From Oscillospiraceae bacterium (GTDB taxonomy: Bacteria > Bacillota > Clostridia > Oscillospirales > Acutalibacteraceae): a stretch of DNA of 32,000 nt. Where the stretch lies: contig SVOV01000002.1 in NCBI GenBank assembly GCA_015066205.1, positions 1 to 32,000 on the forward strand, read 5' to 3'. The notes below the pieces were generated by a model. That model was not told where the DNA came from, did no database searches, and worked only from the letters and a program-made list of their open reading frames with translations. Below, piece after piece: positions 12,139 through 32,000 of this stretch (the stretch's first letter is position 1; each line of letters opens with the position of its first letter). The translations under genes and the position numbers were made by a program.

Positions 12139-12157
12139 ATTATGGAGGGAGATTTTT

Positions 12158-12501: not shown

Positions 12502-12506
12502 TACTA

Positions 12507-13045: not shown

Positions 13046-13090
13046 TTTTTAACACCACCTTTCCCACTATAACAATTATACTACAGCAAT

Positions 13091-13181: not shown

Positions 13182-13228
13182 ATAGACAGTTGATAAACAA
13201 CACAACAAAAACAAAGGAGATATGAAAT

Positions 13229-13504
13229 ATGTCAAACAACGAAATCATCAGAAACATCGAGGCTCTTGCAGAGTGGGAAACAATCATCGAGGATGCAAAG
13301 GCAGAGGCTGAGGCAATCAGAGATATGTTAAAGGCTGAAATGCTCGAACAGAACACCGAGGAACTTGAGGCAGGTGCATACATTATCCGTTGGACTTCAG
13401 TTCTTTCACAGAGATTTGATACAACGGCTTTCAAAAAGTCTCACGCCGATATGTATAAGGAATACACAAAACAGGTCAGCAGTCGCCGATTCTCAATCTG
13501 CTGA
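13229..13504 (+). CDS. Hypothetical coiled-coil protein, first gene of the recombinase operon
   Basis: 91-aa ORF with RBS AAAGGAGA. The N-terminal half is an acidic helix. I recognise no catalytic motif. Confidence 0.6.
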   Translation: MSNNEIIRNIEALAEWETIIEDAKAEAEAIRDMLKAEMLEQNTEELEAGAYIIRWTSVLSQRFDTTAFKKSHADMYKEYTKQVSSRRFSIC

Positions 13505-13516
13505 AAGAATTACAAA

Positions 13517-13539
13517 TGCCCTGCCGCAAAGGCAGGGCA
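13517..13539 (+). other. GC-rich perfect hairpin between the 13229 ORF and the recombinase gene
   Basis: TGCCCTGCC-GCAAA-GGCAGGGCA. No T-run follows. The recombinase RBS lies directly downstream. Confidence 0.5.
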
Positions 13540-13555
13540 GAGAAAGGATAAGATT

Positions 13556-14143
13556 ATGAATTACGGATATGCACGATGCTCGACAAATGAGAGTAAGCAG
13601 GATATTCAGAGGCAGGTCAAAGAACTGAAAGAGGCTGGCGCAAAAGAAATATTCCTTGAATACGAACACGGCGACAGTACCGTCAAACAAGAACTTTCTT
13701 CGCTTCTGGAACAAGCCAAAGAGGGGGATACAATTTACACACTTGAAGTCTCCAGACTTGCCAGAAGTACAAAACAACTTTGTGACATTATTGACACCGT
13801 AAAGGACAAGAAACTCAGACTTGTAATTGTCGGCAGTATCACGGTCGATTGTTCAAACGGTCAGATTGACCCTATGACAAATGCCTTCATTCAGATGTCG
13901 GGCGTGTTTGCAGAACTTGAACTTCGCATTATAAGAGAACGTGTGCGGTCTGGGATGGCAAACGCCAAGGCAAAAGGGGCTAAAATCGGGCGACCGCACA
14001 CAACAACGGAAGAAATCCCACAAATATTTTTCAGACATTATCCTGCGTTCAAGTCGGGCAGTCTGAACCTTTCAGAGTTCGCAAGAGTGTGCGGTCTGAG
14101 CAGAACTACGGTTTATAAATATGTAGGTCTTTTGGAAGGGTAA
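13556..14143 (+). CDS. Small serine recombinase (resolvase/invertase family)
   Basis: YGYARCSTNESKQDIQRQ supplies the catalytic Ser motif. Also present are SRLARS, AELELRIIRERVRSGM and a C-terminal HTH (LSEFARVCGLSRTTVYKYV). Confidence 0.9.
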   Translation: MNYGYARCSTNESKQDIQRQVKELKEAGAKEIFLEYEHGDSTVKQELSSLLEQAKEGDTIYTLEVSRLARSTKQLCDIIDTVKDKKLRLVIVGSITVDCSNGQIDPMTNAFIQMSGVFAELELRIIRERVRSGMANAKAKGAKIGRPHTTTEEIPQIFFRHYPAFKSGSLNLSEFARVCGLSRTTVYKYVGLLEG

Positions 14144-14149
14144 AAGTAA

Positions 14150-14176
14150 AGGGAACGGCTTTGTGCCATTCCCTTT
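14150..14176. terminator. Bidirectional hairpin between convergent genes
   Basis: GGGAACGG (14151-14158) / CCATTCCC (14166-14173) with one mismatch, flanked by an A-run and a T-run. Confidence 0.5.
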
Positions 14177-14188
14177 ATATATGTTAAT

Positions 14189-14374
14189 TTAAGCCCATTC
14201 AGTAATATCTAAAACAGTCCAACCTCTAACCCTTCCATATTTAATGAGTTCATCTCGTCTCAATGTATGAATATAATCTATATCGATTTTCGAAAGTGCA
14301 TTCTGACTAAAAATTTTCATTTTTACTTTATCATTACCAAAATTTGACTTTATCTCTACAATTGTTTGTGTCAT
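14189..14374 (-). CDS. 61-aa hypothetical protein, translationally coupled partner of the Mrr-type nuclease
   Basis: Its AAGGAGA RBS overlaps the stop codon of the upstream 423-aa ORF. I recognise no motif. Confidence 0.6.
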   Translation of the reverse strand: MTQTIVEIKSNFGNDKVKMKIFSQNALSKIDIDYIHTLRRDELIKYGRVRGWTVLDITEWA

Positions 14375-14385
14375 AATAATTCTCC

Positions 14386-15657
14386 TTATAAATAATAGTA
14401 GTTTTCCAATAATTCACGTAGTTTTATTCCATCAATCAATTCTATTGGTTTTTCTTGAGCAAAAATTTGTGCTTGTTTTGTGAAAGTTCCAGATGTCATT
14501 AAGATGCCTTTGTTTGCTCTTTCGGAGGTAATAACACCATATAAATCTCTAATAGTAGGTTCTCCTACGCTTCCAGTATAACGTTTGCACTGTATAATAT
14601 ATTTTCCCGAAAGTAACGGTTGATGATTATATGCAATCAAATCAATACCGCCATCACCAGTGGTTTTTGTAGTTTCAACTTCAAAGCCCATATTCTCCAA
14701 CAATCTTTTACATACCAACTCAAACTCAACTCCAGTAAGAGAGTTTATATTTTCATATGCAGCATTGTATTGGTCACTAAAAGATTTAGCAACTCTAACA
14801 TTGTGACTACCATAAAACGAGACTACTTCCTTTGCTTTTTCAGTATTAAACAAAAGTGGAAGACCGTTAATTTTCACCAAACTCCAATCCCTAAAAGTTA
14901 CTCCCGTCCACTCAATGTCAACATCCTTCCATTTCACACTTGCCTTGTAATACATTTCGTTATGCTCACCATTATATACAATAATATACTCATCAGTAAA
15001 AGCAAGTGAAACTGTAAGAAATTCCAAAAAATTGTCTTTTGTTTCATCTTTGCTTTTTGCGATATCAATCACTATTGCGTCTTGGTGGCTTTCGTATGGT
15101 ACAAATTGAGAATCACCACTTTTGATTATCTCTTTGATTTCATTAGTTGCTGTATTAAGCAGAGCAGAAATCTGAACGTTATATTTGTGTCGTTCTTTCT
15201 GTTCTTGTTGCCAATCATAATCCAATATAAGTGTACTAACTGCACGTTTTACATATTGCTCTTGTTTATCAAGCCAGCCATATTCTTTCAACCTACGAAC
15301 TATTTCAATGTACAAATCCAATTTTCGCAAATCATACACAAAAAACGGATTACCACCAAGGCACATAAACTCTTTCATTTTTCGCTTATATTCATCAATT
15401 GTATATTTTGCTTGCCAAACATCATTTGCTGAAACATATCCGTTTTCTATTTGGTCATCAGAGATTAACTCATCATAATCTGGATTTTTACAATTTATTT
15501 CCCATAACCACTTAATAAAACTTGATTCGTAATTCAATATTTTATCAACATTGCTTATGCTTGCTTTTGTTTCTCTCTCTTGTTCTTGAGCCTCTCTCTT
15601 TTTTTCACTGATTTCAGCCGCCGCCATCGCCCCGAAAAAAGATTTTAAAAATCCCAT
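14386..15657 (-). CDS. Mrr-cat (PD-(D/E)xK) restriction-endonuclease-domain protein with an unassigned ~300-aa N-terminal region
   Basis: The last ~115 aa (nt about 14389-14735) read FELVCKRLLENMGFEVETTKTTGDGGIDLIAY...GKYIIQCKRYTGSVGEPTIRDLYGV...KGILMTSGTFT. This is the classic Mrr D...QxK core. RBS AGGAGAG lies upstream of the ATG at 15657. Confidence 0.8.
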   Translation of the reverse strand: MGFLKSFFGAMAAAEISEKKREAQEQERETKASISNVDKILNYESSFIKWLWEINCKNPDYDELISDDQIENGYVSANDVWQAKYTIDEYKRKMKEFMCLGGNPFFVYDLRKLDLYIEIVRRLKEYGWLDKQEQYVKRAVSTLILDYDWQQEQKERHKYNVQISALLNTATNEIKEIIKSGDSQFVPYESHQDAIVIDIAKSKDETKDNFLEFLTVSLAFTDEYIIVYNGEHNEMYYKASVKWKDVDIEWTGVTFRDWSLVKINGLPLLFNTEKAKEVVSFYGSHNVRVAKSFSDQYNAAYENINSLTGVEFELVCKRLLENMGFEVETTKTTGDGGIDLIAYNHQPLLSGKYIIQCKRYTGSVGEPTIRDLYGVITSERANKGILMTSGTFTKQAQIFAQEKPIELIDGIKLRELLENYYYL

Positions 15658-15839
15658 AATTATCTCTCCTACACAATCAAAATGTATGCAAACAAAGAAC
15701 TATCTTTGATGAATATAACATCGTTTTAAGTTTATCATTGTTATTTTAAAAAATCAACTATTTGTTCAAGTTATTGCGCCTTTACTTTAACACTTTTTAT
15801 ATGTTATAATATCACCAATATGACCAAAAGGGTGATAAT
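15658..15839. promoter_or_regulatory. Divergent control region between the nuclease operon and the WYL regulator
   Basis: TATAAT at 15805-15810. Palindrome CAAAGA-ACTA-TCTTTG at 15694-15709. Imperfect inverted repeat TAATATCACC (15807-15816) / GGTGATAATA (15831-15840) spans the -10 and the RBS of the WYL gene. Confidence 0.35.
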
Positions 15840-16949
15840 ATGGAAGAAGCAAAAAGAGGCAGACAAGATAACCAAAAGATGAAGGCATACCTTGTTATGC
15901 GCTTACTTCAGAAGAACACGGATTTTGATAATTTAATGACCTCTGCGCAAATTGCTGAACTCCTGGACAGTTATGGTGTTTCCGCACAAGAGAAGTCAAT
16001 TCAGAGGGATATTAAGGCAATTAACGCAACACTTGAAGTTGAAGAAGCCATTCTGAACGGTGAAGATTATCATATTGATGAAGCACTCGAATATCTTGAA
16101 GAAGACAAAGAAATCAGAAGTATTCAGTACCGAAGCGCAAGTACAACAAAACGCGGATATTATTTTCAAAGAGAAGAAGGCTTTTTTGAATTAATCAGAC
16201 TGCTTCTGGAAAGTGTCTATTCATCAAAATTTATCACAAAAAAAGATGCAGACTACCTTAAAAAATATATTCTGAAAGATGTCAGCAAATTTGATATTAA
16301 AAAGTTAGACCATATTTCACCTATTGTCAGCAAAAGTAAAACCAAAAATTCTCAGGTGTTCGATAATGTTAAAGTGTTAAGTGATGCGATTACCGCAAGA
16401 TGCAAGGTCGAATTTAATTATAATAATTTCTACATTCCAGAAGGGTCAGATAAGCCTAAAACCAAGTACGGCAGAAAAGACGAAAAATACATTGTCAGTC
16501 CGTATCACCTGTTAATCAATGATGGTAATTATTATCTTCTTTGTTTTGATGAAAAGAACAAAAAGAAATGGACTTACCGTGTTGACCGAATGGAAAATGT
16601 AAGTCTGCGAAAAGATGAAAAAAGAGATGGCGCAGAGTGCTTCTATGACTTCAACGCAAATGAATACGCAAAGACAAACTTTTCAATGTTCGAGGGTGAA
16701 AACAAATTTATTACAATCAAGTTTGTAAACACTTGTATGAATGCTGTTGTTGAGAAAATCGGAACAGAAAAAATCACGTATAAAAATTTTGACAACGGAC
16801 ATTTCACCGTAACAATGCGGACTGGTATCAATGAGCAGTTCTACGGTTGGCTTTGTACTTTTGGAAACAGGGCTCAGGTTGTTGAACCGCAGGAGCAAAT
16901 CGATGCATTTAAGGACTACGTAAACAAGATAACATCATTATACGAATGA
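15840..16949 (+). CDS. HTH-WYL-domain transcriptional regulator (BrxR/CapW/PafBC-like architecture)
   Basis: N-terminal HTH (MTSAQIAELLDSYGVSAQEKSIQRDIKAI). WYL core (YIVSPYHLLINDGNYYLLCFDEKNKKKWTYRVDRMENV). The C-terminal extension ends FYGWLCTFGNRAQVVEP. Confidence 0.8.
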   Translation: MEEAKRGRQDNQKMKAYLVMRLLQKNTDFDNLMTSAQIAELLDSYGVSAQEKSIQRDIKAINATLEVEEAILNGEDYHIDEALEYLEEDKEIRSIQYRSASTTKRGYYFQREEGFFELIRLLLESVYSSKFITKKDADYLKKYILKDVSKFDIKKLDHISPIVSKSKTKNSQVFDNVKVLSDAITARCKVEFNYNNFYIPEGSDKPKTKYGRKDEKYIVSPYHLLINDGNYYLLCFDEKNKKKWTYRVDRMENVSLRKDEKRDGAECFYDFNANEYAKTNFSMFEGENKFITIKFVNTCMNAVVEKIGTEKITYKNFDNGHFTVTMRTGINEQFYGWLCTFGNRAQVVEPQEQIDAFKDYVNKITSLYE

Positions 16950-16954
16950 AAAAT

Positions 16955-16979
16955 GCCTGCTTCCGAGCAGGCGTTTTTT
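16955..16979. terminator. Bidirectional terminator between the convergent WYL and integrase genes
   Basis: GCCTGCT-TCCG-AGCAGGC followed by GTTTTTT and preceded by GAAAAAT. Confidence 0.75.
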
Positions 16980-17026
16980 AGTGTTTATTCATATTCATTT
17001 TGTATGTTCGTGTTTCAACAAACTTA

Positions 17027-17926
17027 TCAATAAGATTTATGCTTGTTGACTTCTTCCGCAGTTTCACTCACAAGCATATTGATATAGTTCTGTGTTATCG
17101 CCAGATTACTGTGTCCTAATATCTTCTGGAGAGAAACAACGTTACCGCCGTTCAGAATCCATTGTTTGGCGAAAGTATGTCTGTATCTGTGTATTCCTGT
17201 TGTTTCCACGCCCCTGTTTTTGTTGTAAGTGTAAAGTTGGTTATAACTTGTACTCTTAGTTAGTTGTTTGCCGAATACGTTACAAAACAGAAAATCTTCA
17301 CCCGAATTGTGTTGTCTGTAGGTCAGATATTCCTTCAGAATGTTCGCCATTGTCTGACTTATGGGAACAACAAGAGGCTTTCTGTTTTTTGTTACGTTAA
17401 TACTCAGAATATTATTGAACAGGTCAACATCTTTAACCTTAATGTGTATCAGACTGCGTTGTCTGAGCCCTGTTGAGAACAGAAGGTTCGTCTGCACCCA
17501 ACATTGATATTCTGTAAATTTGCATTTCTTTAAGTCTGGCTTCTGGAGCAAAACCTTAAGTTCCTCATTTGAATATGTTTCAATAGTGTGTTTATCAACC
17601 TTTATTGCCTGCATCTTGAAATACGGAATATAACCTTCGTTCATCCAGAAGTGAAAAGTGGTAATCAAATCACGTAGATATGAATTGACACTTACATCGT
17701 TATCAATAGAACTGCAAAGATAAACAACATAATCCTTGTATGTTTGCTCGGTAATTTCGCTCAGGAGCAGCTCGCGGTCAAAATATTTATAAAACTGAGT
17801 ATAACTTTGCTTGTAGTGATTGATTGTTCCTTGTCGCAGATTTCTCTGTTTACAGTTAAGGATATACTTGTCGCAACCTTGCTCAAAGGTGATTGATACT
17901 TGCCTAATCATTGATAATTTCTTCAT
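17027..17926 (-). CDS. Tyrosine site-specific recombinase (phage-type integrase)
   Basis: 299-aa ORF. TGLRQRS supplies the catalytic Arg, HRYRHTFA the HxxR box, and LGHSNLAITQNYI the His plus Tyr nucleophile. It lies next to the att repeat. Confidence 0.9.
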   Translation of the reverse strand: MKKLSMIRQVSITFEQGCDKYILNCKQRNLRQGTINHYKQSYTQFYKYFDRELLLSEITEQTYKDYVVYLCSSIDNDVSVNSYLRDLITTFHFWMNEGYIPYFKMQAIKVDKHTIETYSNEELKVLLQKPDLKKCKFTEYQCWVQTNLLFSTGLRQRSLIHIKVKDVDLFNNILSINVTKNRKPLVVPISQTMANILKEYLTYRQHNSGEDFLFCNVFGKQLTKSTSYNQLYTYNKNRGVETTGIHRYRHTFAKQWILNGGNVVSLQKILGHSNLAITQNYINMLVSETAEEVNKHKSY

Positions 17927-17955
17927 AAAAACTTGACTCCTACTTGATGTTTTTA

Positions 17956-18005
17956 CTAAAAAACGTTAGACCCATCATGACTTGAAACCGTCAAATGATG
18001 GGTCT
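17956..18005 (-). terminator. Rho-independent terminator of the GGGtGRT gene
   Basis: AGACCCATCAT / ATGATGGGTCT stem (17968-18005). The A-run at 17958-17963 gives a U-run on the - strand. Confidence 0.7.
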
Positions 18006-18048
18006 AATTGTTTATCAATGATTAAATTTTAAGCAAATGCTCAAAAGT

Positions 18049-18145
18049 GGCTTATTTGCTTGCTTCTTCAATAGCAACAGCACATGCAACGGTCATACCA
18101 ACCATGGGGTTGTTACCTGCGCCGATGAGTCCCATCATTTCTACG
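18049..18145. repeat. Direct repeat (att, integrase-proximal copy) forming the functional 3' end of the GGGtGRT gene
   Basis: It matches 8857-8953. All differences are synonymous in the - strand reading frame. Confidence 0.85.
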
Positions 18146-19050
18146 TGAGCGGGAACGGAGGAGGAGCCTGCGAACTGTGCGTCGGAGTGCATTCTGCCCA
18201 TTGTATCTGTCATACCGTAGGAAGCGGGGCCTGCTGCCATATTGTCGGGATGAAGAGTACGGCCTGTGCCGCCGCCTGATGCAACGGAGAAATACTTCTT
18301 GCCGATTTCGTTACATTCCTTCTTATATGTGCCTGCAACGGGATGCTGGAAGCGGGTGGGGTTAGTTGAGTTACCTGTGATGGAAACGTCAACACCTTCG
18401 TGATGCATAATAGCAACGCCTTCACGGACATCGTCTGCACCGAAGCAACGAACCTTAGCTCTGGGGCCGTTTGAATATGCCTTTTCGCTTACGATTTCGA
18501 GCTTACCTGTCATATAATCGAACTTTGTTTCAACGAATGTGAAGCCGTTGATTCTGGAGATTATCTGAGCAGCGTCCTTTCCGAGACCGTTAAGAATAAC
18601 CTGAAGGGGTTCTTTTCTTACCTTGTTTGCGGAATTAGCGATACCGATAGCACCTTCAGCTGCTGCGAAGGATTCGTGACCTGCAAGGAAAGCGAAGCAC
18701 TTTGTTTCTTCTCTTAAAAGCATAGCAGCGAGGTTGCCGTGGCCGAGACCAACCTTTCTGTCATCAGCAACTGAACCGGGGATACAGAAAGCCTGAAGGC
18801 CTTCACCGATAGCTTCAGCAGCGTCAGCTGCCTTTGTGCAGCCCTTCTTGATAGCGATAGCTGTACCTGTGATATATGCCCAGCAAGCATTTTCAAAGCA
18901 GATGGGCTGAATGCTCTTGATAAGGTTATATACATCGATACCCTTATCGTCACAGATCTTCTTTGCTTCTTCGAGAGAGGCAATGCCGTACTTTTCGAGT
19001 GCAACGTTGATCTGGTTAATTCTTCTTTCGTAACTTTCAAATAAAGCCAT
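18052..19050 (-). CDS. GGGtGRT-family protein (conserved, function unknown)
   Basis: 332-aa ORF containing the eponymous SVASGGGTGRTLHPD motif. Confidence 0.85.
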   Translation of the reverse strand: MALFESYERRINQINVALEKYGIASLEEAKKICDDKGIDVYNLIKSIQPICFENACWAYITGTAIAIKKGCTKAADAAEAIGEGLQAFCIPGSVADDRKVGLGHGNLAAMLLREETKCFAFLAGHESFAAAEGAIGIANSANKVRKEPLQVILNGLGKDAAQIISRINGFTFVETKFDYMTGKLEIVSEKAYSNGPRAKVRCFGADDVREGVAIMHHEGVDVSITGNSTNPTRFQHPVAGTYKKECNEIGKKYFSVASGGGTGRTLHPDNMAAGPASYGMTDTMGRMHSDAQFAGSSSVPAHVEMMGLIGAGNNPMVGMTVACAVAIEEASK

Positions 19051-23700: not shown

Positions 23701-24307
23701 GACTCAGCTTCTTTCAATTATGGAGGACTTTGATATTGACCTTATTCTTCAGGGCAGTGAGAATGTATATGTCAGAACAGATTATATAAGAAACGATTCC
23801 CCCGTGCTTTATAATATAAAAGAGGTGACCGTTGACGGTGCTTCTTACGATGCTTATTCGGATGCAAAGGGTACTGTGGCAGTTATCAGCGGAAATACAG
23901 CAAGTGAATCGGGCGGTGAAATACCCGAGGGCGTATGCTACGATAAGGCTCAGTCCTACGGCTGTCCCATGTTCAGCGCAATTACAATTGACGGTAATGT
24001 TCTTGCAGTTTCAGCCTATACGGTTGAAGACACCAAAACACAGAAGGTCGATTCCTTTGCTGTTGAAAAAGAAAGCAAGGCAATTTTACTTGGCGATGTA
24101 AATTCTGACGGCAGCATCACTGCTTCCGATGCAAGACTTGCTCTCAGATATTCCGTTGACCTCGAAAGCCTCACAAACGCGCAGAAGGCTGCGGCAGAAG
24201 TAAATAACGACAATGCAATTACAGCCGCAGATGCAAGAGCTATTTTAAGAGCCTCCGTAGATCTCGAAGAAATATTCCCCGAATATGTATTCAAACTTGT
24301 CTATTAA
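20744..24307 (+). CDS. Secreted double metallophosphoesterase with C-terminal type I dockerin
   Basis: GTG start after GGAGG, then a signal peptide. The first calcineurin-like domain has VNDTHY, VLVGDLTTNGE, GNHD and GGHQH. A PAP-like Fn3 domain is followed by a second metallophosphatase domain (FIHVSGSEG, YDYGNAHFIVLNT, ILIMHQSIYG). The dockerin duplicated F-hand reads DVNSDGSITASDARLALR / VNNDNAITAADARAILR (nt about 24086-24290). Confidence 0.85.
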   Translation: MKKSVSLKILSLFLCLALLLSAAPLSFAAEDSTFSIATVNDTHYYTEKLAGDKGEAFYTYLEGHNCVYKDLDAILDAAFASLEYEVKNNGVKHIVLVGDLTTNGEYEGHKALSEKLLAFEKKTGASVYVTPGNHDINNPRASQFINNIKEPAKMTTMSDFYDIYKELGFSDAYHQFTDFTAEKAGCLSYSVKTGDGYRLILADGGKFTSDITESGEDKQETAGAFTPELLEWILKEAEDAKKDGETPILFTHWNMSGMNYFHEFLMQGFVIDDGYKLQEILADAGINYSFGGHQHVSDVSITYSDSGNPMYSVITPTLTQFPFSYRVTDFKKNAEGGLDVTFNQRECDEYAPVITSKGTAYPSPYRRTGFIKQFGGNADAADYIFGILKSTLDKYFDGIRKEGSIVKYIEKELELDIEALVDSYLFGGIKFEGKNVLSGKNAMSFLSDLDTQLMEKFIYPKETTYKLIKDALRELLDTEISSVPCTKFIDTYGFGDENHGGTLGDAVLSVLATMYYGNEDISDDLFLQDVVEFSGKTEFLDLLISLVREHVVDRLVLDTILANVDFNIKALFVDETATVGEYIQMIYTIILGLLDSGILSSGSVDDFVKAFVKIEKNFNDISLKRLIEAVLGTGLISYGSTIDELIDNLLGQFLPLGARETAVYQAQIVIGGMVQDSTKDHGVTYTNNGAVKVIPTKEDMQLPVNMTMSMAEDNSSSFTVSWFTKYSVEGTDIEIVKENEAFTGKAMTDGVTATNEKVIYSAPGFDVGEFSILPYERELVKHTVTVTGLEADTDYKIVFGDFTKGFTAEAAVSTAPEKDGKFTFIHVSGSEGYIPSHYENFKNTLNAADALYPDSDFIVHTGSLTKKPENDDQWSFAISAAEDIFSSKRFVYSAGSSDSEGNSEVSKYFSVTTAPDQLDNSGVYYSYDYGNAHFIVLNTNNLTSGGALSLEQSEWLRDDLTQSSKKWNILIMHQSIYGAVSAPALKTQLLSIMEDFDIDLILQGSENVYVRTDYIRNDSPVLYNIKEVTVDGASYDAYSDAKGTVAVISGNTASESGGEIPEGVCYDKAQSYGCPMFSAITIDGNVLAVSAYTVEDTKTQKVDSFAVEKESKAILLGDVNSDGSITASDARLALRYSVDLESLTNAQKAAAEVNNDNAITAADARAILRASVDLEEIFPEYVFKLVY

Positions 24308-24324
24308 AAAGAGGTGCAAAAATT

Positions 24325-24573
24325 ATGATAAAGAATTATATATATAAAGCAATTTTTTGCGCAATATCGGTGGTTGTTGTTTTTTGTATTGCAGGCAGAT
24401 TTGTAAGTAACTCAGGTATTGATGATATGATATACATAATGCTTATAATAGTTATTGCTCTTCTGGTTTTCCTGGTGATAATCTCAGTTGGTATTTATAA
24501 AAGAATAGATGTTCTTTATTATGGGGAAGCAGAACAGAAATCAACAGAAAAAGACAATTTAAGGCATCAATAA
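24325..24573 (+). CDS. Small membrane protein (82 aa, two hydrophobic helices)
   Basis: RBS AGAGGTG upstream of the ATG. It starts 17 nt after the preceding stop. Confidence 0.6.
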   Translation: MIKNYIYKAIFCAISVVVVFCIAGRFVSNSGIDDMIYIMLIIVIALLVFLVIISVGIYKRIDVLYYGEAEQKSTEKDNLRHQ

Positions 24574-24681
24574 GACTTGAGTGTGCTTCATAAGCTTGTT
24601 TGTTCCGTTCTTATAAGAAAAAACTTGTGATTTGACCCCTTCATCAAAACTTGGAAGACTGCAAGGGGCCTGATATGTAAT

Positions 24682-24717
24682 AATCGGTCAAGTATCCTTA
24701 CGGGTACTTGACCGATT
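24682..24717 (+). terminator. Strong hairpin, probable operon terminator
   Basis: AATCGGTCAAGTATCC-TTAC-GGGTACTTGACCGATT, a 16-bp stem with one G-U pair. The tail is only moderately T-rich. Confidence 0.55.
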
Positions 24718-24830
24718 ATGTTGTCTTTATTTAATCAGAATGTTATGTTTTCAAGATCGAGCTTGCCGTAATAGACATTATTAAAACAGTATCTCGTATA
24801 CCATATCTATTTTTTAATTATCTTTATTCC

Positions 24831-24859
24831 TTGACAAGTTTTCAAGGAAGAAATACAAT
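24831..24859 (+). promoter_or_regulatory. Sigma-A-type promoter of the sigma-factor gene
   Basis: TTGACA (24831-24836), a 17-nt spacer, then TACAAT (24854-24859). The -35 is embedded in the inverted repeat CCTTGA...TCAAGG. Confidence 0.55.
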
Positions 24860-24892
24860 AAAATCAGAATATCAAGGAAAGGAGAATGAATT

Positions 24893-25417
24893 GTGTCTGA
24901 TATGCTGAAAATATGGGACGAGTGCCGTGACAGTATATATAAGCTTTGCAAAATCAAGCTCAGTTCATTCCCCGACACTTGGGAAGAGGTAGTGTCCGAT
25001 GTATATTCCGCTTTTTCGGATGCCGTAAAAAAAGGCACCGAAATAAGCTTCCCTAAAGCCTGGATATATAAAACGGCAAATAATATCATAGCGCAGAAAT
25101 ATAAGGAGCTTTCGGACAGAAGAAACTTTTTCACCGATATTGATGCTTTTTCCGACGCAAAAATTATAATACCGTTCACTCCCGATTATACGGACAGGCT
25201 GTATTCGGATGAAGAAATAGAAAGAATTGCAGATAATATCCTTTCGGAATGTACCGAAGAGGAACAGCTTCTTCTCCGCCTTTTCTACAAAGAAAAAAAG
25301 AGCTATAAGGAAATAGCTCTGGTGCTGAACAAGGCCGAAAACACCGTCAGGCAGCAGAATTTCAGGCTGACAAGACGCATAAAGAAGCGGATATTTGAAG
25401 AATTTGACTGTACTTAA
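24893..25417 (+). CDS. Sigma-70-family RNA polymerase sigma factor (small, group 4/ECF-like size)
   Basis: Region 2-like segment FPKAWIYKTANNIIAQKYKE. Region 4 HTH segment SYKEIALVLNKAENTVRQQNFRLTRRIKK. GTG start 7 nt after GGAGA. Confidence 0.75.
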   Translation: MSDMLKIWDECRDSIYKLCKIKLSSFPDTWEEVVSDVYSAFSDAVKKGTEISFPKAWIYKTANNIIAQKYKELSDRRNFFTDIDAFSDAKIIIPFTPDYTDRLYSDEEIERIADNILSECTEEEQLLLRLFYKEKKSYKEIALVLNKAENTVRQQNFRLTRRIKKRIFEEFDCT

Positions 25418-25482
25418 AATTTTTTCGTGTCAGCTGTAACTTCTGACTGTTTTTTTACACTACTTATATGGGAGGCGGTAAA

Positions 25483-26238
25483 ATGAATAAGGAAATAATC
25501 CGAAATACTCTTGAAGCAGATTCCGAAGAGCTTTCAGGAGAAGATATACAGACTATCCTTGATGAGGAGCTCAATAAAAATGAAGAGGAAATGGATACCG
25601 AGCTTATTGAGCTCCTCATTGAAGCTTTAAGCCGTGAAGCCGATTCCGCTGAGGTCAGCTGTGAAATTTCTCAGGGTAATATAAAGAAAATCAAACACCG
25701 CAAAATCAAAAGGATACTTATCATTGCTGCCGTATTATCAATTATTTCGATCATAACCTTTTCTGTCGCAGCAAATATTTTCAATGTAGATGCAAAACCC
25801 GGAATTGTAAAAATTTTCGGAAATATCGTAAGCATTAACCTTGAAGCTCTCGAGAACAAGGAAATAGAAAGCAATAATTATGAAGAATTCAAAGGAACAT
25901 ATTTTTTCCCCATTTTCAGAAGTGATACTTGTGTTCTGGAAGAAAAAGAACACTCGGGCGAATCTGTCCGCTGGATCGAATTTTATTTTAAGGATTCAGG
26001 TATTTCAGGAAACATAATTATCGACCAAAACAGCCTTTACGGTTTTGTATCCGACAGATGTGACTTTATCACAAGGGTTGAACAGATAAAGCAAACCGAA
26101 ATTGACGGAGTCGATACACTCATAATTTCAACAGTTTCTATGGGAAGCGAAATTATCTATGTTGCAAATAATGACTATTACCACATACACTTCCCCGATC
26201 TGACATTTGAAGAGACCCTCAACTTACTCAAAAAATAA
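25483..26238 (+). CDS. Single-pass membrane protein, putative anti-sigma factor
   Basis: ATG 25483 follows GGAGG. It has an acidic cytoplasmic N-terminus, one TM helix (ILIIAAVLSIISIITFSVAANIF) and an extracytoplasmic domain. The anti-sigma role is inferred from its position directly after the sigma gene only. Confidence 0.45.
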   Translation: MNKEIIRNTLEADSEELSGEDIQTILDEELNKNEEEMDTELIELLIEALSREADSAEVSCEISQGNIKKIKHRKIKRILIIAAVLSIISIITFSVAANIFNVDAKPGIVKIFGNIVSINLEALENKEIESNNYEEFKGTYFFPIFRSDTCVLEEKEHSGESVRWIEFYFKDSGISGNIIIDQNSLYGFVSDRCDFITRVEQIKQTEIDGVDTLIISTVSMGSEIIYVANNDYYHIHFPDLTFEETLNLLKK

Positions 26239-26258
26239 ATAAGGAGATATAAAAAATT

Positions 26259-26338
26259 AAGACAGGGGTCGGTTCTCTGTGTCTTATGTGGATAGTTGAG
26301 TGAAACAAGGAATAAGACATAGAACCATCCCCTGTCCT
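26259..26338. repeat. Palindromic copy of the GGGGACGGTTCT-motif element
   Basis: Forward arm AAGACAGGGGTCGGTTCT (26259-26276) plus GTGTCTTAT. Reverse arm ATAAGACAT plus AGAACCATCCCCTGTC (26321-26336). It begins 21 nt after the stop of the 25483 ORF. Confidence 0.8.
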
Positions 26339-26406
26339 ACTACTATAAACATATGGGCATAGACTTTTATATGGGTGTTTAATAAAGCAGGCATATAGGA
26401 GGTTTT

Positions 26407-26661
26407 ATGATGTATAAAATTGTTTTATTATTTTTGATAGGCGAAGTTTTTAATTTTGTCAGGTATTTTTTTTCAAAATATGCAGATTTAGCTGTATATA
26501 GTATTCCATTTTCATTGTTGCAAGGAACATTTTTGACAGCTGCAGAATTCTTATTAATAACAAAATTTGCCAAAAATCTAAAAAGAAAAAAACTCTTACT
26601 TTTACTTTTGTGCTTGAAAAGCTTTGTTTTCTTTTCATTTTATTGTTTTGTTGTGTTATGA
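26407..26661 (+). CDS. Small hydrophobic membrane protein (84 aa)
   Basis: Strong RBS AGGAGG 4 nt upstream of the ATG. Multiple hydrophobic segments. Confidence 0.6.
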   Translation: MMYKIVLLFLIGEVFNFVRYFFSKYADLAVYSIPFSLLQGTFLTAAEFLLITKFAKNLKRKKLLLLLLCLKSFVFFSFYCFVVL

Positions 26662-26730
26662 ATCGATATAGACGGCAAAAAAATGAAAACCAAATGGTTA
26701 TTCGAAATTTTTAAAACAACGACGGGAAAT

Positions 26731-26748
26731 TAAGACAGGGGACGGTTC
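26731..26748 (+). repeat. Solo forward copy of the motif (AAGACAGGGGACGGTTCT)
   Basis: Direct reading. It lies 70 nt after the stop of the 26407 ORF. A possible TTGACA-17-TATTAC promoter follows at 26758-26786. Confidence 0.8.
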
Positions 26749-26835
26749 TACAGGAGTTTTGACATATTTTATATCTGATTATATTACTAAATCTTTGTCA
26801 GATAATATGGTTTATAAATAAGGAGTTGTAGATTT

Positions 26836-27333
26836 ATGCATAAAATAAAAAAGTCATATCTACTTGCAATAAATATTTTAATTATCGGTTTTTTTCTTTT
26901 GCTTGTATGGGCATTATTGGAAACAGAACTGCTGGATGGCAGATTCAGAAGCAGATTTATAGGCGTCAGTCTTGGAATAATTATCTTTTGCGTTACGGCG
27001 GATTATAAGAACAGAAGCCGAAAATATGTAAAATTTAATGATAAACATGTACGGATCAATGCATATCATAAGAAAACCATAACTAAGGTGCAAGATATTG
27101 ACATCCTGTATGAAGATATCAGAGCACTGAAAGTAAAGAAAAACCCTGTATTTGGAGTAACAGCATTATTAATTGATGCAGATAATTACGGTAATAATAT
27201 AAAAATAATCCGAGCATACAAAAGCTTTGCTGATATGTGTGAAACTTTTTATCTTAAAACAAAAGCATTTGCTCCCGATGCTAAAATTTCTTCTGATTAT
27301 ATTGATTATCTGAAAAGGAAAAACAAATTATGA
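26836..27333 (+). CDS. Membrane protein (165 aa): two N-terminal TM helices plus a small soluble domain
   Basis: RBS AAGGAG. The hydrophobic N-terminus reads LLAINILIIGFFLLLVWALL. Confidence 0.65.
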   Translation: MHKIKKSYLLAINILIIGFFLLLVWALLETELLDGRFRSRFIGVSLGIIIFCVTADYKNRSRKYVKFNDKHVRINAYHKKTITKVQDIDILYEDIRALKVKKNPVFGVTALLIDADNYGNNIKIIRAYKSFADMCETFYLKTKAFAPDAKISSDYIDYLKRKNKL

Positions 27334-27482
27334 AAAAGGAAACTAAAAGAAAAATCGGTATAATTTCAGGCACTGCAATTCTCTATCTTATTTATCTTTT
27401 TAGCCCGATTGAAAAAATGGATTTTATTCCTCCTATGCTACTGATTCTTATGTTTTTATCTCTTGGAATGGCAAACAGGTAA
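27330..27482 (+). CDS. Small membrane protein (50 aa), translationally coupled (ATGA overlap)
   Basis: Not in the ORF track because it is under 60 aa. It reads MKKETKRKIGIISGTAILYLIYLFSPIEKMDFIPPMLLILMFLSLGMANR. The ATG overlaps the upstream TGA. Confidence 0.45.
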   Translation: MKKETKRKIGIISGTAILYLIYLFSPIEKMDFIPPMLLILMFLSLGMANR

Positions 27483-27484
27483 CC

Positions 27485-27546
27485 AATCAGGGGGGCGGCT
27501 TGTTTAAGAAAACTGCCGATCACAGAACCGTCCCCTGATTTTTTCT
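27485..27546. repeat. Palindromic copy of the motif element with T-run (terminator-like)
   Basis: AATCAGGGGGGCGGCT (27485-27500) ... AGAACCGTCCCCTGATT (27524-27540), followed by TTTTTC. It starts 3 nt after the stop of the 50-aa ORF. Confidence 0.85.
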
Positions 27547-27571
27547 TTATTAAAATTATGGAGTGGTAGAT

Positions 27572-28303
27572 ATGCGACGAAAACAAATTTATTTGTTTCT
27601 GTTATTTGTATTTTTGATTGTTGTTTCTATAAGCACAATAGAGGTGAATGCAATGCATACAGGTTTCGAAATAACTGAATTGCCAAGCGAAGAAAAGGAA
27701 TTATTTATTTCCAATATCAATGTATTATCAATAGATGAGGAGCCGGCAAAAAAAACTATCAAATGTTTTGACGTAAATGGTGACCAGTTAATAGCAATTG
27801 GACAAAACACATCAAACAGAAAAACAATATGTGTATATTCAAATAAAGGTGTTTTTCAATATGGATACACTTTTAATTGTACTGGTGATTTTGGGGTTGA
27901 ATGGGATGGAAAAAATTTGAACATTTATTTTGTTCGCAGTAGTGTTATTGTTTCGGTAAACCCAAAAGGTGAAGTGCTGGGTGCTTTTGAGGTAGAAAAT
28001 ACAATTGACAATAATTCGTACATAAATCATTTCTTTCAAACCACCAAAAGAACAATAGGCAAAGATGAATATTTGATTGGGAATAATATGGGACTATTGA
28101 ACTTCTTTGCCACATCATATTCACAGATAATTGTGAAAGACAGCACTGGTTTCGAAAAAGTCATCTATGATGTTGGTTCAATGTATCTCACAAAAATGAT
28201 AGTAACCATCAGTCTTGTTTGTGTCTTTGTCTTAATTACCATAGCAGTTGTTTTTTGGCAATTTATTAAGTTGAGGCGCAGCAATCAGGGGACGGTTCTA
28301 TGA
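27572..28303 (+). CDS. Secreted/membrane-anchored protein (243 aa): N-terminal signal/TM and C-terminal TM helix
   Basis: ATG 27572 lies 8 nt after GGAG. The C-terminal TM reads MIVTISLVCVFVLITIAVVFW. The last 7 codons are supplied by the repeat motif. Confidence 0.65.
   Translation: MRRKQIYLFLLFVFLIVVSISTIEVNAMHTGFEITELPSEEKELFISNINVLSIDEEPAKKTIKCFDVNGDQLIAIGQNTSNRKTICVYSNKGVFQYGYTFNCTGDFGVEWDGKNLNIYFVRSSVIVSVNPKGEVLGAFEVENTIDNNSYINHFFQTTKRTIGKDEYLIGNNMGLLNFFATSYSQIIVKDSTGFEKVIYDVGSMYLTKMIVTISLVCVFVLITIAVVFWQFIKLRRSNQGTVL
28283..28299 (+). repeat. Forward copy AATCAGGGGACGGTTCT overlapping the 3' end of the 27572 ORF
   Basis: Direct reading. It is read in-frame as NQGTVL before the stop codon. 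Confidence 0.9.
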
Positions 28304-28331
28304 TTGAGCCCTAATCCTCTTGAAATCAAAA

Positions 28332-28414
28332 ACTCAGAGGGCGGTTTGTTTAATAAAACTGCCGATCACAGAACCGTCCCCTGATTTTTTCCAGAACCGT
28401 CCCCTGATTTTTTC
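28332..28414. repeat. Reverse-arm module plus a perfect tandem duplication of a 23-mer
   Basis: ACTCAGAGGGCGGTTTGTTTAATAAAACTGCCGATCA parallels 27485-27522. CAGAACCGTCCCCTGATTTTTTC occurs twice in tandem (28369-28391 and 28392-28414). Confidence 0.9.
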
Positions 28415-28442
28415 TAGCTATAGCTATTTTTGAGGTGATTGG

Positions 28443-29357
28443 ATGGGAATAACAAAAAAATTATTTATTTTGATTCTATTATTAATATTTTTATCAAATT
28501 CTGGGTGTATCTTAACAAATAATGCCATAGAGAAAGAAATTGATGCTTTGGAAATTGAATCAAATACTCCTTTGGGCTATCTTTACCACAGCAAGTTTTT
28601 CTACCTTGATGAAGTATTGGATTTTGATGAGCTGTTAAAAAATGAAAAGATCAAAGCTTCTTTTGAAGATGTATTTTGTGTCACTGACAACAATATTTGG
28701 TTTTTATATTCAACAGAAATTACCGGAATTGGTGAGAAATGGCATTTGGCAACTGTAACAATGACCGGTAAGGATTTTTGTTTGCGATATGAATCTATAT
28801 TCTGTTCCTCAGATGATTCTGACACTTCATACAGAAAATCATTAGAATCTATAGATTATTCAGAAATGAACGGTTTTTATGTTAATGATAAAATCATTTT
28901 AACAGACAAAAATAAACTCGTTGAGATAAATGTTCTATCAAATGAAATAATAGAATACTCTTACAAGAATTACAAATTTCTTGAATCAACTGTTTATATT
29001 GACATTCAACCCCAACAGCTCGTTTTTCACGGAAAAGAGAAGAAAAGAATTATTGATTTCACAGAAGCATCAAAAATGAGTAAAGTTTTCGACCAAATCG
29101 CACAGTTTTCAAAGTATAAAATATACGACGGAACTTATTCTATGGATTCATTTTTTGACAAGGTACAGTTTTGTAATGGCAAATATTATATCTATGGACG
29201 CATTCTTAATTGGCATGGCGAAACACATATGGTAATATTTGAATACGATTTTTATAATGATTGTCTAAGTTATATTTTAAACTTAAAAACTTACGATGTT
29301 GCATCACATTGTCTGTTTATTGTTCCGATCAATCAGATGACAGTCAGAAATCACTGA
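28443..29357 (+). CDS. Putative lipoprotein (304 aa)
   Basis: RBS GAGGTGA. The signal peptide has a lipobox-like LSNSGC. This is the only ORF of the array without the motif at its 3' end. Confidence 0.65.
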   Translation: MGITKKLFILILLLIFLSNSGCILTNNAIEKEIDALEIESNTPLGYLYHSKFFYLDEVLDFDELLKNEKIKASFEDVFCVTDNNIWFLYSTEITGIGEKWHLATVTMTGKDFCLRYESIFCSSDDSDTSYRKSLESIDYSEMNGFYVNDKIILTDKNKLVEINVLSNEIIEYSYKNYKFLESTVYIDIQPQQLVFHGKEKKRIIDFTEASKMSKVFDQIAQFSKYKIYDGTYSMDSFFDKVQFCNGKYYIYGRILNWHGETHMVIFEYDFYNDCLSYILNLKTYDVASHCLFIVPINQMTVRNH

Positions 29358-29396
29358 AAAAATCTGATTAAATGAAAAAAAGAGGGTGGTGGAATA

Positions 29397-30068
29397 ATGC
29401 TTAACACACAAAGAAAACTAATGCAAAATTTTGTGCTATGGAATGTTATTACCGGATTATTTCTTTTCCCGATAGGAATAGGATTTTCTGTTTCATTTGT
29501 TGTCATTTTCACTGTTGGTTCCTTCATTTTTGAGGGGAGTATTAATTCCGTTTTTATTCCCATCTGCATGTGCGTTGTCTTTATTGCTCTGCGTATATTA
29601 CTGTATTCAAATAAACTTTACGAAAAGAAAATTGTAAGAGTTTTTATAAAAGTATATTTGATAATTGATTATCTGTTTTGTCATATAGCGTTTATTGGAT
29701 ATTGTATTAATGATTATTTTGAAATATTCAGAAATTCGTCATTTGACAGATCAACAAAAATAATTCTCTTGATATGCTATATTTTTTCTTCGTTAATGCT
29801 TATAGTATTCGCAATCTTAGTCTATCTTTTTTACAGAAAGACTTCAGATGAGCAAAAATGTGTTATTATCAAAAAAATCTATAAAACATATTTCTTTCTT
29901 ATCCCCATATTTGTTTTAATTTTCTTTTTAACATCACATTTATCTTTTTATTCTGTTCTTGGTGCATTAGAAAGTATGATTTGGGGATTTACAGTATATA
30001 TGACAGAAATTCAAAGCCACTCAAACCAATTAGTCAACCAATCAGGGGACGGTTCTGCACCAATTTAA
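29397..30068 (+). CDS. Polytopic membrane protein (223 aa)
   Basis: RBS GAGGGTGG. About 6 hydrophobic helices. The last 10 codons (NQSGDGSAPI) are supplied by the repeat motif. Confidence 0.65.
   Translation: MLNTQRKLMQNFVLWNVITGLFLFPIGIGFSVSFVVIFTVGSFIFEGSINSVFIPICMCVVFIALRILLYSNKLYEKKIVRVFIKVYLIIDYLFCHIAFIGYCINDYFEIFRNSSFDRSTKIILLICYIFSSLMLIVFAILVYLFYRKTSDEQKCVIIKKIYKTYFFLIPIFVLIFFLTSHLSFYSVLGALESMIWGFTVYMTEIQSHSNQLVNQSGDGSAPI
30040..30056 (+). repeat. Solo forward copy AATCAGGGGACGGTTCT overlapping the 3' end of the 29397 ORF
   Basis: Direct reading. The extended match AACCAATCAGGGG is shared with 27481-27493. Confidence 0.9.
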
Positions 30069-30098
30069 GTTATATTCCTTAGAATGAGGTAAACTTAT

Positions 30099-30695
30099 AT
30101 GTTTATATTTATAAGACTGATTGTCTGCATTGTATTTTTTCTATGCTCAGCTGCAGTAATTAAAAGACTAAAAAAAGCAAACAAACGAAAACTGTATATA
30201 ATACTTACGGCTATATCAATAATTCTTTATGTTCTGTTAAGCTTTTTTACTTTTGAGAACTTGTTTTTTACTTTCGACTCGCCCGAATCTGCATACAGAT
30301 ACTTTATTCCCGGAAAAGCTGATATTGAACTTGTTGTTGACGGAGAGAATTGTGATTTGATCGTGGATCATAAAGGAGATTCCGACACACTGTTAATTTT
30401 ACCGAAAACCGAACACGGATGGAAAATAGGAACAGGCTCAGATATTATAACAGTAACCCAAAAACTTTTTGACGGAATTTCAGTAAATGTTTATAAAAAC
30501 AAAAACTCAAATGACCATTTTATAACTGTTCTTGATACAAACGAAGAAAAATCAAAAATCTCCGACAGCTACAATACTGAATTTCACTCAATAGAAAACT
30601 TAAGCAAAAACCATATTACTTACTATGCATACCTTATTGATTTCAACACTGAGTATTATTTGAAGATAAACGGTAAGTTAGTAACATTCAATTAA
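30099..30695 (+). CDS. Membrane-anchored protein (198 aa): two N-terminal TM helices plus a soluble domain
   Basis: RBS TGAGGT upstream of the ATG. Hydrophobic N-terminus. Confidence 0.65.
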   Translation: MFIFIRLIVCIVFFLCSAAVIKRLKKANKRKLYIILTAISIILYVLLSFFTFENLFFTFDSPESAYRYFIPGKADIELVVDGENCDLIVDHKGDSDTLLILPKTEHGWKIGTGSDIITVTQKLFDGISVNVYKNKNSNDHFITVLDTNEEKSKISDSYNTEFHSIENLSKNHITYYAYLIDFNTEYYLKINGKLVTFN

Positions 30696-30704
30696 GCCGA
30701 TAAC

Positions 30705-30721
30705 AAGACAGGGTGCTTTCT
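30705..30721 (+). repeat. Degenerate forward copy (AAGACAGGGTGCTTTCT)
   Basis: It starts 10 nt after the stop of the 30099 ORF and matches the AAGACAGGG...TTCT frame of the 26731 copy. Confidence 0.5.
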
Positions 30722-30753
30722 CATCACTGTTCGGAAAATAGGAGGAAATTTTA

Positions 30754-31278
30754 ATGACAGAACAGGCGTTAGTCCGGACACTTACATTTATATCAGTATT
30801 CATAATTGTAATTATTTTAGCAACATGTATTTTTAACTCTAATTATCGGAGTATTATCGGTAATCTTACTAAAAATCACATTGTTCTTCGTTTGCCTAAA
30901 CAGTATATGTGGGTGGGGTGCTTTGGGACTATTGTAATTATGATGTGGTTGATTATAATGAGTTGCTACCCCAATGATACAACTACTGTGTGGGTTTATC
31001 TTTTATTTATTATGTTTATGTCCGCCGGGTTAGTGCTTATTATTGCATATCGTCGTTGGCGCATTGTATTTTTCCGTGATCAAGATACTTTTATTTATTG
31101 TTCCATACTTGGCAAAGTATATAAATTTTCATTCAGCGAATGCCAATCATGTCAATGGAAAAATAATCATATACGATTGGTTGTATCAAAAAAAACAATT
31201 TATATTGATGCAATGGTGACAAACCTTGATTTTTTCTTGTCAAAACTCTCAAAATTTGTAGTAATAGAAGGGCTTTGA
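30754..31278 (+). CDS. Membrane protein (174 aa): three TM helices plus a small C-terminal domain
   Basis: RBS AGGAGG. The stop codon overlaps a GACAGGGG motif copy. Confidence 0.65.
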   Translation: MTEQALVRTLTFISVFIIVIILATCIFNSNYRSIIGNLTKNHIVLRLPKQYMWVGCFGTIVIMMWLIIMSCYPNDTTTVWVYLLFIMFMSAGLVLIIAYRRWRIVFFRDQDTFIYCSILGKVYKFSFSECQSCQWKNNHIRLVVSKKTIYIDAMVTNLDFFLSKLSKFVVIEGL

Positions 31279-31303
31279 CAGGGGAACAAACGACAGGGGG
31301 TAC
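31275..31303 (+). repeat. Two degenerate forward half-copies (TTGACAGGGGAAC, CGACAGGGGGTAC)
   Basis: Direct reading. The first overlaps the TGA of the 30754 ORF. Confidence 0.45.
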
Positions 31304-31311
31304 TCATTAGT

Positions 31312-32000
31312 ATGAGAAAATGGCTGCGTAAAAGTTTGTTTGTACTGAATTTGGTATTATATATTATCACCGTGATTTGTTGTATATTAGGCACAGTTGC
31401 AGATATTATACAGCCAATTAATTTAGTGCGGCTATTTGAATATTTACATATCAATTTGTCATATACCGATTTTATAATAGTGGGTTGGGCGTGTGCATTT
31501 CTTGCTATAGCTTTACATTTTTTGCGGAATCTGTATGTTTTTCAAGGAGGTTCTATGAAAAAGAAAAATGTATGTACAACTGACAGATATGTATTGGCTG
31601 ACGATGAGCTTATTGCAATTCGCTGCTTTACGCCGTTTACCTTAGTTGGTTTTTCCGTGTATACAATTATTTTACTTATATGGGCTTTCCGAGAGAAAAA
31701 CGATATTGTGTGTTGGTTGTTTGCAGGCGGATTTTTATTAGTTCTGTTTATTTTGTGCTATAATACATTCCGTTATCTTAAATATTATTTTATGCAGTTT
31801 TGTATTTGTGACTATAAAATCTCTAATTCTGTCCGGTCGCACCCCGAAGTTTCATTAAAACTGTTCGATCAATTATTTTTTACAACAGCAGCTGTTGAAT
31901 TCACATTTGGCAGAGTTGAGAGAACAAAAACATTCTATTTGTTTTCTGAAAAAAAAGTTCAAATAGACGATATTGACGGTTCCGGATTTAATGTTCTTAT
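31312..32000 (+). CDS. Membrane protein, partial (open to the window end). An alternative internal start exists at 31555.
   Basis: This frame stays open from ATG 31312 to nt 32000 and is absent from the ORF track because it has no stop. A much stronger RBS (AGGAGG) precedes the in-frame ATG at 31555. Hydrophobic helices occur in both parts. Confidence 0.5.
   Translation, partial: MRKWLRKSLFVLNLVLYIITVICCILGTVADIIQPINLVRLFEYLHINLSYTDFIIVGWACAFLAIALHFLRNLYVFQGGSMKKKNVCTTDRYVLADDELIAIRCFTPFTLVGFSVYTIILLIWAFREKNDIVCWLFAGGFLLVLFILCYNTFRYLKYYFMQFCICDYKISNSVRSHPEVSLKLFDQLFFTTAAVEFTFGRVERTKTFYLFSEKKVQIDDIDGSGFNVL

Follow-up and report, generated by a model that had tools for sequence, protein, structure and literature searches.

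The first 32,000 nucleotides of contig SVOV01000002.1, from assembly GCA_015066205.1 of an Oscillospiraceae bacterium, end in a run of short co-oriented open reading frames (ORFs), several of which are followed by imperfect palindromes built on a common motif. This raises the question of whether the region is an array of gene cassettes or a stretch colonized by a mobile repeat. The initial annotation of this stretch, hereafter the window, favoured the former, with cassette-like units between 26259 and 31305, and kept as a fallback a local family of repetitive extragenic palindromic (REP) elements or terminators. Our analyses show that the fallback was essentially right: units of the same family bracket transposase genes in related organisms, occur in mixed orientation and are found in many genomes. 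We consider it highly probable that the motif is the core of an element of the REP type, or of the REPIN type formed by doublets of REPs, i.e. a small non-autonomous mobile hairpin tied to a transposase of the REP-associated tyrosine transposase (RAYT) type.

A search of the window with the degenerate 16-mer RAYAGGGGACGGTTCT, allowing up to two mismatches, returned eight matches against 0.01 in shuffled sequence (Table 1). A covariance model of the unit gave seven non-overlapping matches (E ≤ 1.4e-4), all within 26251-30072, and nothing better than E = 0.48 across the rest of the window, which bears out the earlier statement that the motif is absent from the first 26 kb. The number of copies had been overestimated: instead of at least 11, there are eight and one remnant. 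The copy reported at 30700 is an empty site where a sister strain holds an 80-nt REPIN, and the one reported at 31278-31300 has no covariance-model match at E ≤ 10. A unit accompanies five of the eight ORF ends (26238, 26661, 27482, 28303 and 30068) rather than seven. Two stem sub-families are present, AAGACA at 26259 and 26731 and AATCA elsewhere. A further unit lies beyond the right edge of the window, and none was found in the 7.2 kb further to its left.

Among the three palindromes initially proposed, those at 26259-26338 and 28283-28386 are inverted pairs with strong folds. The former, whose units score 23.5 and 28.2 bits under the covariance model, folds at -36 kcal/mol (z = -5.9 against shuffled sequence) and has copies with 92-93% identity at two other sites of the sister strain; the arms of the latter are 95% complementary, its units score 34.6 and 34.5 bits, and its fold reaches -53.3 kcal/mol (z = -6.8). 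The third, at 27485, is weak in its forward half copy (9.3 bits only, the inverted partner scoring 35.3), yet alignment with the sister strain supports it; it constitutes a hairpin with a U-run (-20.8 kcal/mol), and a direct repeat of 53 nt joins 27493-27545 to the REPIN at 28283-28392. The solo unit at 26731-26752 is an exact pattern match (25.6 bits, E = 5e-6) with no significant fold, and that at 30040-30057 scores 21.4 bits (E = 1.4e-4). The possibility that three contigs covering this region (L003-L005) were broken at the repeats was rejected, their ends falling at window positions 27385, 28107 and 27794, outside the units.

The exact 17-mer of the motif occurs in at least 120 species-representative genome stretches, about 69 chance matches being expected in the whole collection, and the 120 loci listed were those analysed further. 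They derive overwhelmingly from ruminant-gut metagenome-assembled genomes (MAGs) labelled Acutalibacteraceae, Oscillospiraceae, Clostridia, Lachnospiraceae or Ruminococcus, several unit-bearing contigs per MAG being common (e.g. JAZPXQ01 and JAEEKA01), and hold 412 units, of which 85% lie between genes or at the edges of ORFs. As a negative control, 80 unrelated Clostridia-type metagenome loci (1.17 Mb), returned by a scan anchored on the major facilitator superfamily (MFS) gene and none of them syntenic with the window, contained the core at chance level only. The 1187-aa protein encoded in the window has a 75% identical orthologue in an Acutalibacteraceae MAG where the repeat is likewise found, so that the organism of the window is probably an uncultured, Acutalibacteraceae-like bacterium; a metagenome scan anchored on this flanking protein gave no confirmed relative. 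A full-text literature search for the 11-mer core yielded unrelated primer matches only.

Alignment of all core copies from the 120 loci gave the unit consensus (T)CAATCA-GGGGACGGTTCTN-TGATTG(A), about 27 nt long, in which a stem of 6-7 bp, variable yet complementary, surrounds an invariant loop that in the units of the window consists of GGGGACGGTTC plus 2 nt. Covariation was assessed under a model with a 7-bp stem and a 13-nt loop on 147 copies not picked by the search word. Across these the 11-nt core was invariant, and the flanks varied but remained complementary (AATCA/TGATT, AAGACA/TGTCTT, CACACA/TGTGTG, CTATCA/TGATAG and AAAATA/TATTTT), the stem score being 0.347 against 0.186 in shuffles, with 0 of 500 reaching the observed value, and at most 0.165 in slid controls. 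Neighbouring units no more than 300 nt apart are placed forward-then-inverted in 75 cases and inverted-then-forward in four (p = 5e-18), so that the usual compound form is a head-to-head doublet, a REPIN hairpin of 60-150 nt. Tandem copies at a spacing of 20-45 nt are also common, and truncated solos and tandem partial units occur; the latter speak for the 5' stem half being part of the element. Searches of Rfam, at gathering and permissive thresholds, gave no family match, and a tRNA scan found none.

The link with a transposase emerged from the protein content of these loci. All-against-all clustering of their ORFs delineated a family of about 250 aa in nine of the 120 loci, a number raised to 14 by tblastn, against one of 179 control loci (p = 1.7e-5). 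Members match the Pfam family Y1_Tnp (IS200-like) above its cut-off (E = 1e-13 to 1e-16). The best solved structure for a profile of 16 sequences is 4ER8, the TnpA_REP of E. coli (E = 2.6e-6), ahead of ISDra2 TnpA, and the HUH and catalytic Tyr motifs align; a profile was needed, a search of the PDB with a single sequence having given no relevant match. At E ≤ 1e-20 the family comprises 7,606 protein clusters, and the JGI name of some of them is 'REP element-mobilizing transposase RayT'. In five loci (L109, L110, L157, L165 and L224) the gene lies between a forward unit, which precedes the start by 45-60 nt, and an inverted unit, which follows the stop at a distance of 2-10 nt, both with the same stem variant. 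Such bracketing of a transposase gene by inverted REPs is what defines REP/RAYT systems (PMC3116915, PMC3733652).

In the same five loci, the 3' stem half of the left unit (L109 3926-3990) continues into TTGACAAA, followed in L109 by TATAAT 17 nt further on. To judge from this arrangement, the -35 box of the RAYT promoter seems to come from the left unit. TGATTGACAAAA is retained in many of the dispersed units, which could create outward promoters. Most close relatives of the RAYT gene lie on contigs of 0.8-2.5 kb, an indication that short-read metagenome assemblies are routinely interrupted at the flanking repeats. The 11-nt core also builds many AT-stemmed palindromes in freshwater Candidatus Omnitrophota MAGs (L106, L124, L161, L184, L190, L196, L197 and L219), and in one of these (L190) it flanks a RAYT only 27% identical to that of the Clostridia; the core is thus kept across phyla while stems and enzyme diverge. 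A putative phage contig (IMG/VR UViG_3300028805_000089, 88.7 kb; L104, L070, L038 and L035) holds 12 REP units with the stem AACAG/CTGTT, all on the same strand over about 50 kb, and no RAYT in the parts examined; so strict a bias towards one strand would be consistent with targeting of single-stranded DNA according to the direction of replication.

The behaviour of the repeats over short evolutionary times was assessed in the sister strain L306, which carries the same genomic island at 97-98% DNA identity, and in a related species, L310, whose flanking gene is 66% identical. The 80-nt REPIN present at 21309-21388 of L306 is absent from the window at 30709/30710. This filled-versus-empty site shows no target duplication beyond an ambiguous GGG; the left boundary lies directly 5' of GGGG, the AAGACA that stays in the empty site is complementary to the internal TGTCTT of the REPIN, and the boundaries of the insert are asymmetric relative to its inverted units. 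In this single case, the retention of an AAGACA that pairs with the internal TGTCTT resembles the target choice of IS200/IS605 elements. L306 also has a full REPIN (16293-16402) where that of the window at 27485-27546 has lost 48 nt, and an extra 1.69-kb block of two membrane ORFs and a REPIN, the end points of which lie in or beside units. The presence of this block in L306 and its absence from the window account for the odd extra unit at 28393-28415, which is what remains of the right-hand REPIN after loss (or non-gain) of the block. The two end points of the block are non-equivalent within the units, one lying 11 nt after CCCC and the other directly 5' of AGAACCG, and both differ from the clean boundaries of the 80-nt insertion. 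A further indel of 445 nt around orf82 (window 24289-24807) has no REP unit; it holds an ORF of 82 aa with two transmembrane (TM) segments and, at 24680-24719, a hairpin with a perfect 18-bp stem. All 19 core matches of L306 (up to two mismatches) are inside the island, with none in the 13.6 kb to its left, and in L310 the entire island is replaced by ABC-transporter genes, no unit being present.

Given this gain or loss of a REPIN, the 48-nt deletion and the two-ORF indel between strains 97-98% identical, the repeats are dynamic and mark points of rearrangement. The suggestion that strain variants would break at the motif is borne out by the two-ORF block and the REPIN gained or lost there, but not by the non-equivalent end points nor by the indel at 24289-24807, and the differences between strains fit repeat-associated rearrangement better than a site-specific exchange of cassettes. 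A precise position of RAYT cleavage was not derivable from the three strain differences, whose end points are inconsistent.

In the mechanism we propose, a RAYT, which we infer to be encoded elsewhere in this genome, would bind folded single-stranded DNA by reading the invariant loop and would copy or excise REPINs. Within the island, which is low in GC and varies between strains, the elements have built up between genes and across the 3' ends of two ORFs, and they are still dynamic through insertion or excision, internal deletion and a role as end points of the two-gene indel. As a by-product, the REPINs ending in T6 (at 27546, 28392 and 28415) probably terminate or stabilize transcripts of the co-oriented genes. 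Units inserted at the very ends of genes would give the impression of ORFs 'ending at the motif', and reading frames running into a unit would soon meet a stop, the consensus unit containing TGA in two frames. The ORFs ending at 28303 and 30068 run into a unit and stop inside it or at most 12 nt beyond, and the forward unit 28283-28304 supplies the last seven codons and the stop of the first of them (243 aa), the stop being one of the TGA codons of the unit.

Several observations weigh against assigning the motif to the REP/REPIN class. No RAYT gene was found in the approximately 48 kb of this organism examined. In the relatives, the transposases score 75-79.6 bits against the NCBIfam model 'REP-associated tyrosine transposase', marginally under its cut-off of 80. 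The units lack the GTAG tag of classical RAYT-associated REPs (the consensus has no terminal GTAG, and a CGTC on the opposite strand is located within the loop instead of at an end), and their conserved part is the loop rather than the stem. Finally, all nine units of the 48 kb fall in one 6.6-kb stretch of the island, whereas classical REPs are spread more evenly. The plain reading of this clustering in low-GC DNA is that selfish repeats are tolerated in dispensable sequence and mediate rearrangements there.

Table 1. Repeat units, accessory island and elements of the integrative element in the window
Feature	Position in the window	Strand	Remarks
Matches to RAYAGGGGACGGTTCT	26261, 26734, 28284, 30041	+	
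Matches to RAYAGGGGACGGTTCT	26321, 27524, 28370, 28393	-	
REPIN	26259-26338		forward unit 26259-26285, inverted unit 26312-26338; stem AAGACA/TGTCTT
Solo REP unit	26731-26752	+	5' stem half and core only; 3' stem half missing
Truncated REPIN	27485-27546		forward unit minus 48 nt, AATCAGGGG left; inverted unit 27519-27540 intact, then TTTTTT
Full REPIN	28283-28392		forward unit 28283-28304, inverted unit 28365-28386, then TTTTTT; stem AATCA/TGATT
Extra partial inverted unit and T-run	28393-28415	-	
Solo REP unit	30040-30057	+	overlies codons near the 3' end of a 223-aa ORF (...NQSGDGSAPI*)
Empty REPIN site	30704-30715		AAGACA followed by GGGTGC; alignment of window 30650-30770 with L306 21248-21450
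Unit beyond the right edge	about 32782-32820 (L001:12029-12067)	-	
Low-GC accessory island	24308-32000, on to about 32,880 past the window	+	29-33% GC, flanks 44-46%
Extracytoplasmic function (ECF) sigma factor	24893-25417		island
Putative anti-sigma factor	25468-26238		island
Xer-like integrase	17027-17926		integrative element
WYL regulator	15840-16949		integrative element
Mrr-type restriction endonuclease	14386-15657		integrative element
Serine recombinase	13556-14143		integrative element
Small helix-turn-helix genes			integrative element

The island comprises orf82, the ECF sigma factor, the putative anti-sigma factor and about 12 small ORFs in the same orientation that encode membrane or secreted proteins, and all REP units of the neighbourhood fall inside it. 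The initial description of these ORFs as co-oriented, AT-rich, mutually dissimilar and of membrane or secreted type was confirmed, their GC content being 24-34% and each having at least one TM-like segment; Pfam and NCBIfam matched only sigma-70 and DUF6560 among them. Exact-protein look-ups of island ORFs led to 12 and 22 contigs, with an identical gene order in all. In other species their homologues have different neighbourhoods, again of low GC content and again beside units, e.g. those of orf243 in L145 (41% identity) and orf198 in L222 (44% identity). The overlapping pair orf165 and orf50 (window 26836-27482) has two paralogous copies, arranged in tandem, in an Oscillospiraceae MAG (L143 4994-7056); each copy precedes a REPIN, which suggests that duplication of a gene together with its repeat occurs in such islands. 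In L145 (25-4500), a Tn916-type integrase (414 aa) directly adjoins a mini-array in which REP units separate three secreted or membrane ORFs of low GC content, one of these ORFs being the homologue of orf243; housekeeping genes come after the array.

These islands could alternatively be arrays of cassettes driven by the RAYT itself, in which units enclose segments of one or two ORFs and the HUH transposase moves these segments as single strands, much as an IS200/IS605 transposase carries along whatever lies between its two ends. Such a system would account for the 1.69-kb block, present or absent between nearly identical strains with both ends in or beside units, for the recurrence of low-GC homologues of the island ORFs beside units elsewhere, and for the absence of the whole island from L310. 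It would also fit the composition of the 120 loci, where ORFs beside units are 4 GC points below the remaining ORFs of their locus, as holds in 77% of 87 loci (p = 1.3e-8). The end points of the block are nevertheless non-equivalent, unlike the clean boundaries of the REPIN insertion; ORFs are flanked by inverted-then-forward units in some loci and by forward-then-inverted units in others; another indel of the island has no unit; and selfish repeats in dispensable DNA, with recombination between them, account for the same data. We therefore regard RAYT-driven cassettes as improbable. If real, they would represent a functional analogue of the integron derived from a different enzyme superfamily in gut Clostridia.

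Still less probable, in our opinion, is that the hairpins are functional terminators or RNA-stability elements of the host devoid of mobility, with a loop read by a host RNA-binding factor. A hairpin with a U-run is found at 27485-27546, 28283-28392 and 28393-28415, i.e. three inverted units followed by runs of six T, and REPINs fold very stably; units favour convergent (37%) and tandem (26%) gene ends over divergent regions (20%), with a sense-strand bias of 114 against 76 in tandem intergenic regions. The bracketing of a transposase gene in relatives and the presence or absence of a REPIN between near-identical strains speak against an exclusively host function, as do the solo units with no fold, the REPIN at 26259-26338 with no U-run and the lack of an Rfam match, and a role in transcription is compatible with a mobile REPIN as a side effect. 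A scan for consensus terminators misses these hairpins because their loops exceed 8 nt.

An integron-like array, with the palindromes as attC-type sites of a tyrosine recombinase and each ORF with its site as a cassette, has very little to recommend it: imperfect palindromes of 56-110 nt do lie behind several co-oriented, unrelated, promoter-less small ORFs, a tyrosine recombinase gene is located 8 kb upstream on the opposite strand and strains vary at the sites, but this recombinase is Xer-like (51 bits, where the integron integrase model TIGR02249 has a cut-off of 265) and ends a separate integrative element absent from L306, which retains the array, no GTTRRRY/RYYYAAC cores occur, units show mixed orientation, solos and tandems, and the motif is present on many contigs and species, where it brackets RAYT genes. 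A recombinase to the right of the array, as suggested initially, was looked for and not found; two small ORFs and one unit are followed there by housekeeping-type genes (MFS transporter, metallophosphoesterase, EngB, Lon and TldD). The candidate recombinase, the only tyrosine recombinase of the window, was rejected as serving the array, since the element to which it belongs is absent from L306. A miniature inverted-repeat element derived from a DDE transposon with terminal inverted repeats is not supported by the filled-versus-empty site, which shows no target-site duplication and boundaries asymmetric to the inverted units.

The integrative element itself is about 9.1 kb long (window 8860-18146) and is delimited by direct repeats of 95 nt (8860-8954 and 18052-18146) at the 3' end of a GGGtGRT gene; a similar element occupies the same site in L310. 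Further to the left, the minus strand of the window (2965-8355) encodes an ORF of 1796 aa with LRR_5 repeats according to the annotation of L313 and L314. It is absent from L306, where a TetR gene adjoins the GGGtGRT gene, and is split into 500 and 1245 aa in L314.

To our knowledge, work on REPIN-RAYT systems has been confined almost entirely to Proteobacteria. If the REP/REPIN assignment is right, the elements described here provide a clear example from uncultured gut Clostridia, with a different design for recognition, in which the loop is invariant, the stem is free to covary and there is no GTAG tag. On a practical level, such repeats probably break metagenome assemblies, mark strain-variable islands and can mislead annotation, e.g. 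through ORFs extended into a repeat. The suggestion of a new integron-like system is removed for this window.

These elements can be compared with several known systems. Like the attC sites of integrons (e.g. the Vibrio cholerae repeats), they include imperfect palindromes, 60-140 nt long, that follow small co-oriented ORFs with no relation to one another in an array differing between strains, and attC is recognized as a folded single strand, as proposed for the unit here. Unlike attC, they have no IntI and no R/L boxes, lie in mixed orientation dispersed over genomes and are linked to a transposase from another superfamily. With IS200/IS605 and their miniature derivatives they share a Y1 HUH enzyme, sub-terminal hairpins, asymmetric end positions and, at the one clean site, an insertion with no target duplication directly 3' of AAGACA, complementary to internal sequence. 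The ends of IS200/IS605 are however direct and on one strand, whereas the flanking units here are inverted, as for RAYTs, and the RAYT profile is closer to TnpA_REP than to ISDra2 TnpA. Group 1 RAYTs occur in Clostridia, where the flanking 16-mers are only modestly repeated (Bertels 2017, PMC5581495), and some RAYT genes are flanked by inverted repeats unrelated to GTAG REPs that form moderately abundant families (Di Nocera 2013, PMC3733652); neither a REP family of Firmicutes nor the core GGGGACGGTTC is described in these two papers. The closest correspondence is with the REP/REPIN-RAYT systems of Enterobacteria and Pseudomonas (Nunvar 2010; Bertels & Rainey 2011, PMC3116915; structure 4ER8), which also consist of short extragenic hairpins, mostly in head-to-head doublets, with a Y1 HUH transposase gene between one forward and one inverted unit (here in relatives), and of non-autonomous copies located at gene 3' ends and present or absent between close strains. 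The elements described here differ from these in lacking a 5' GTAG tag, in combining a conserved loop of 11-13 nt with a short covarying stem, and in a RAYT of about 250 aa that carries a C-terminal extension of about 110 aa and is remote from 4ER8 (profile E = 2.6e-6). Their hosts are uncultured gut Clostridia and a divergent branch in the Omnitrophota, and their copies are strongly clustered in low-GC islands.

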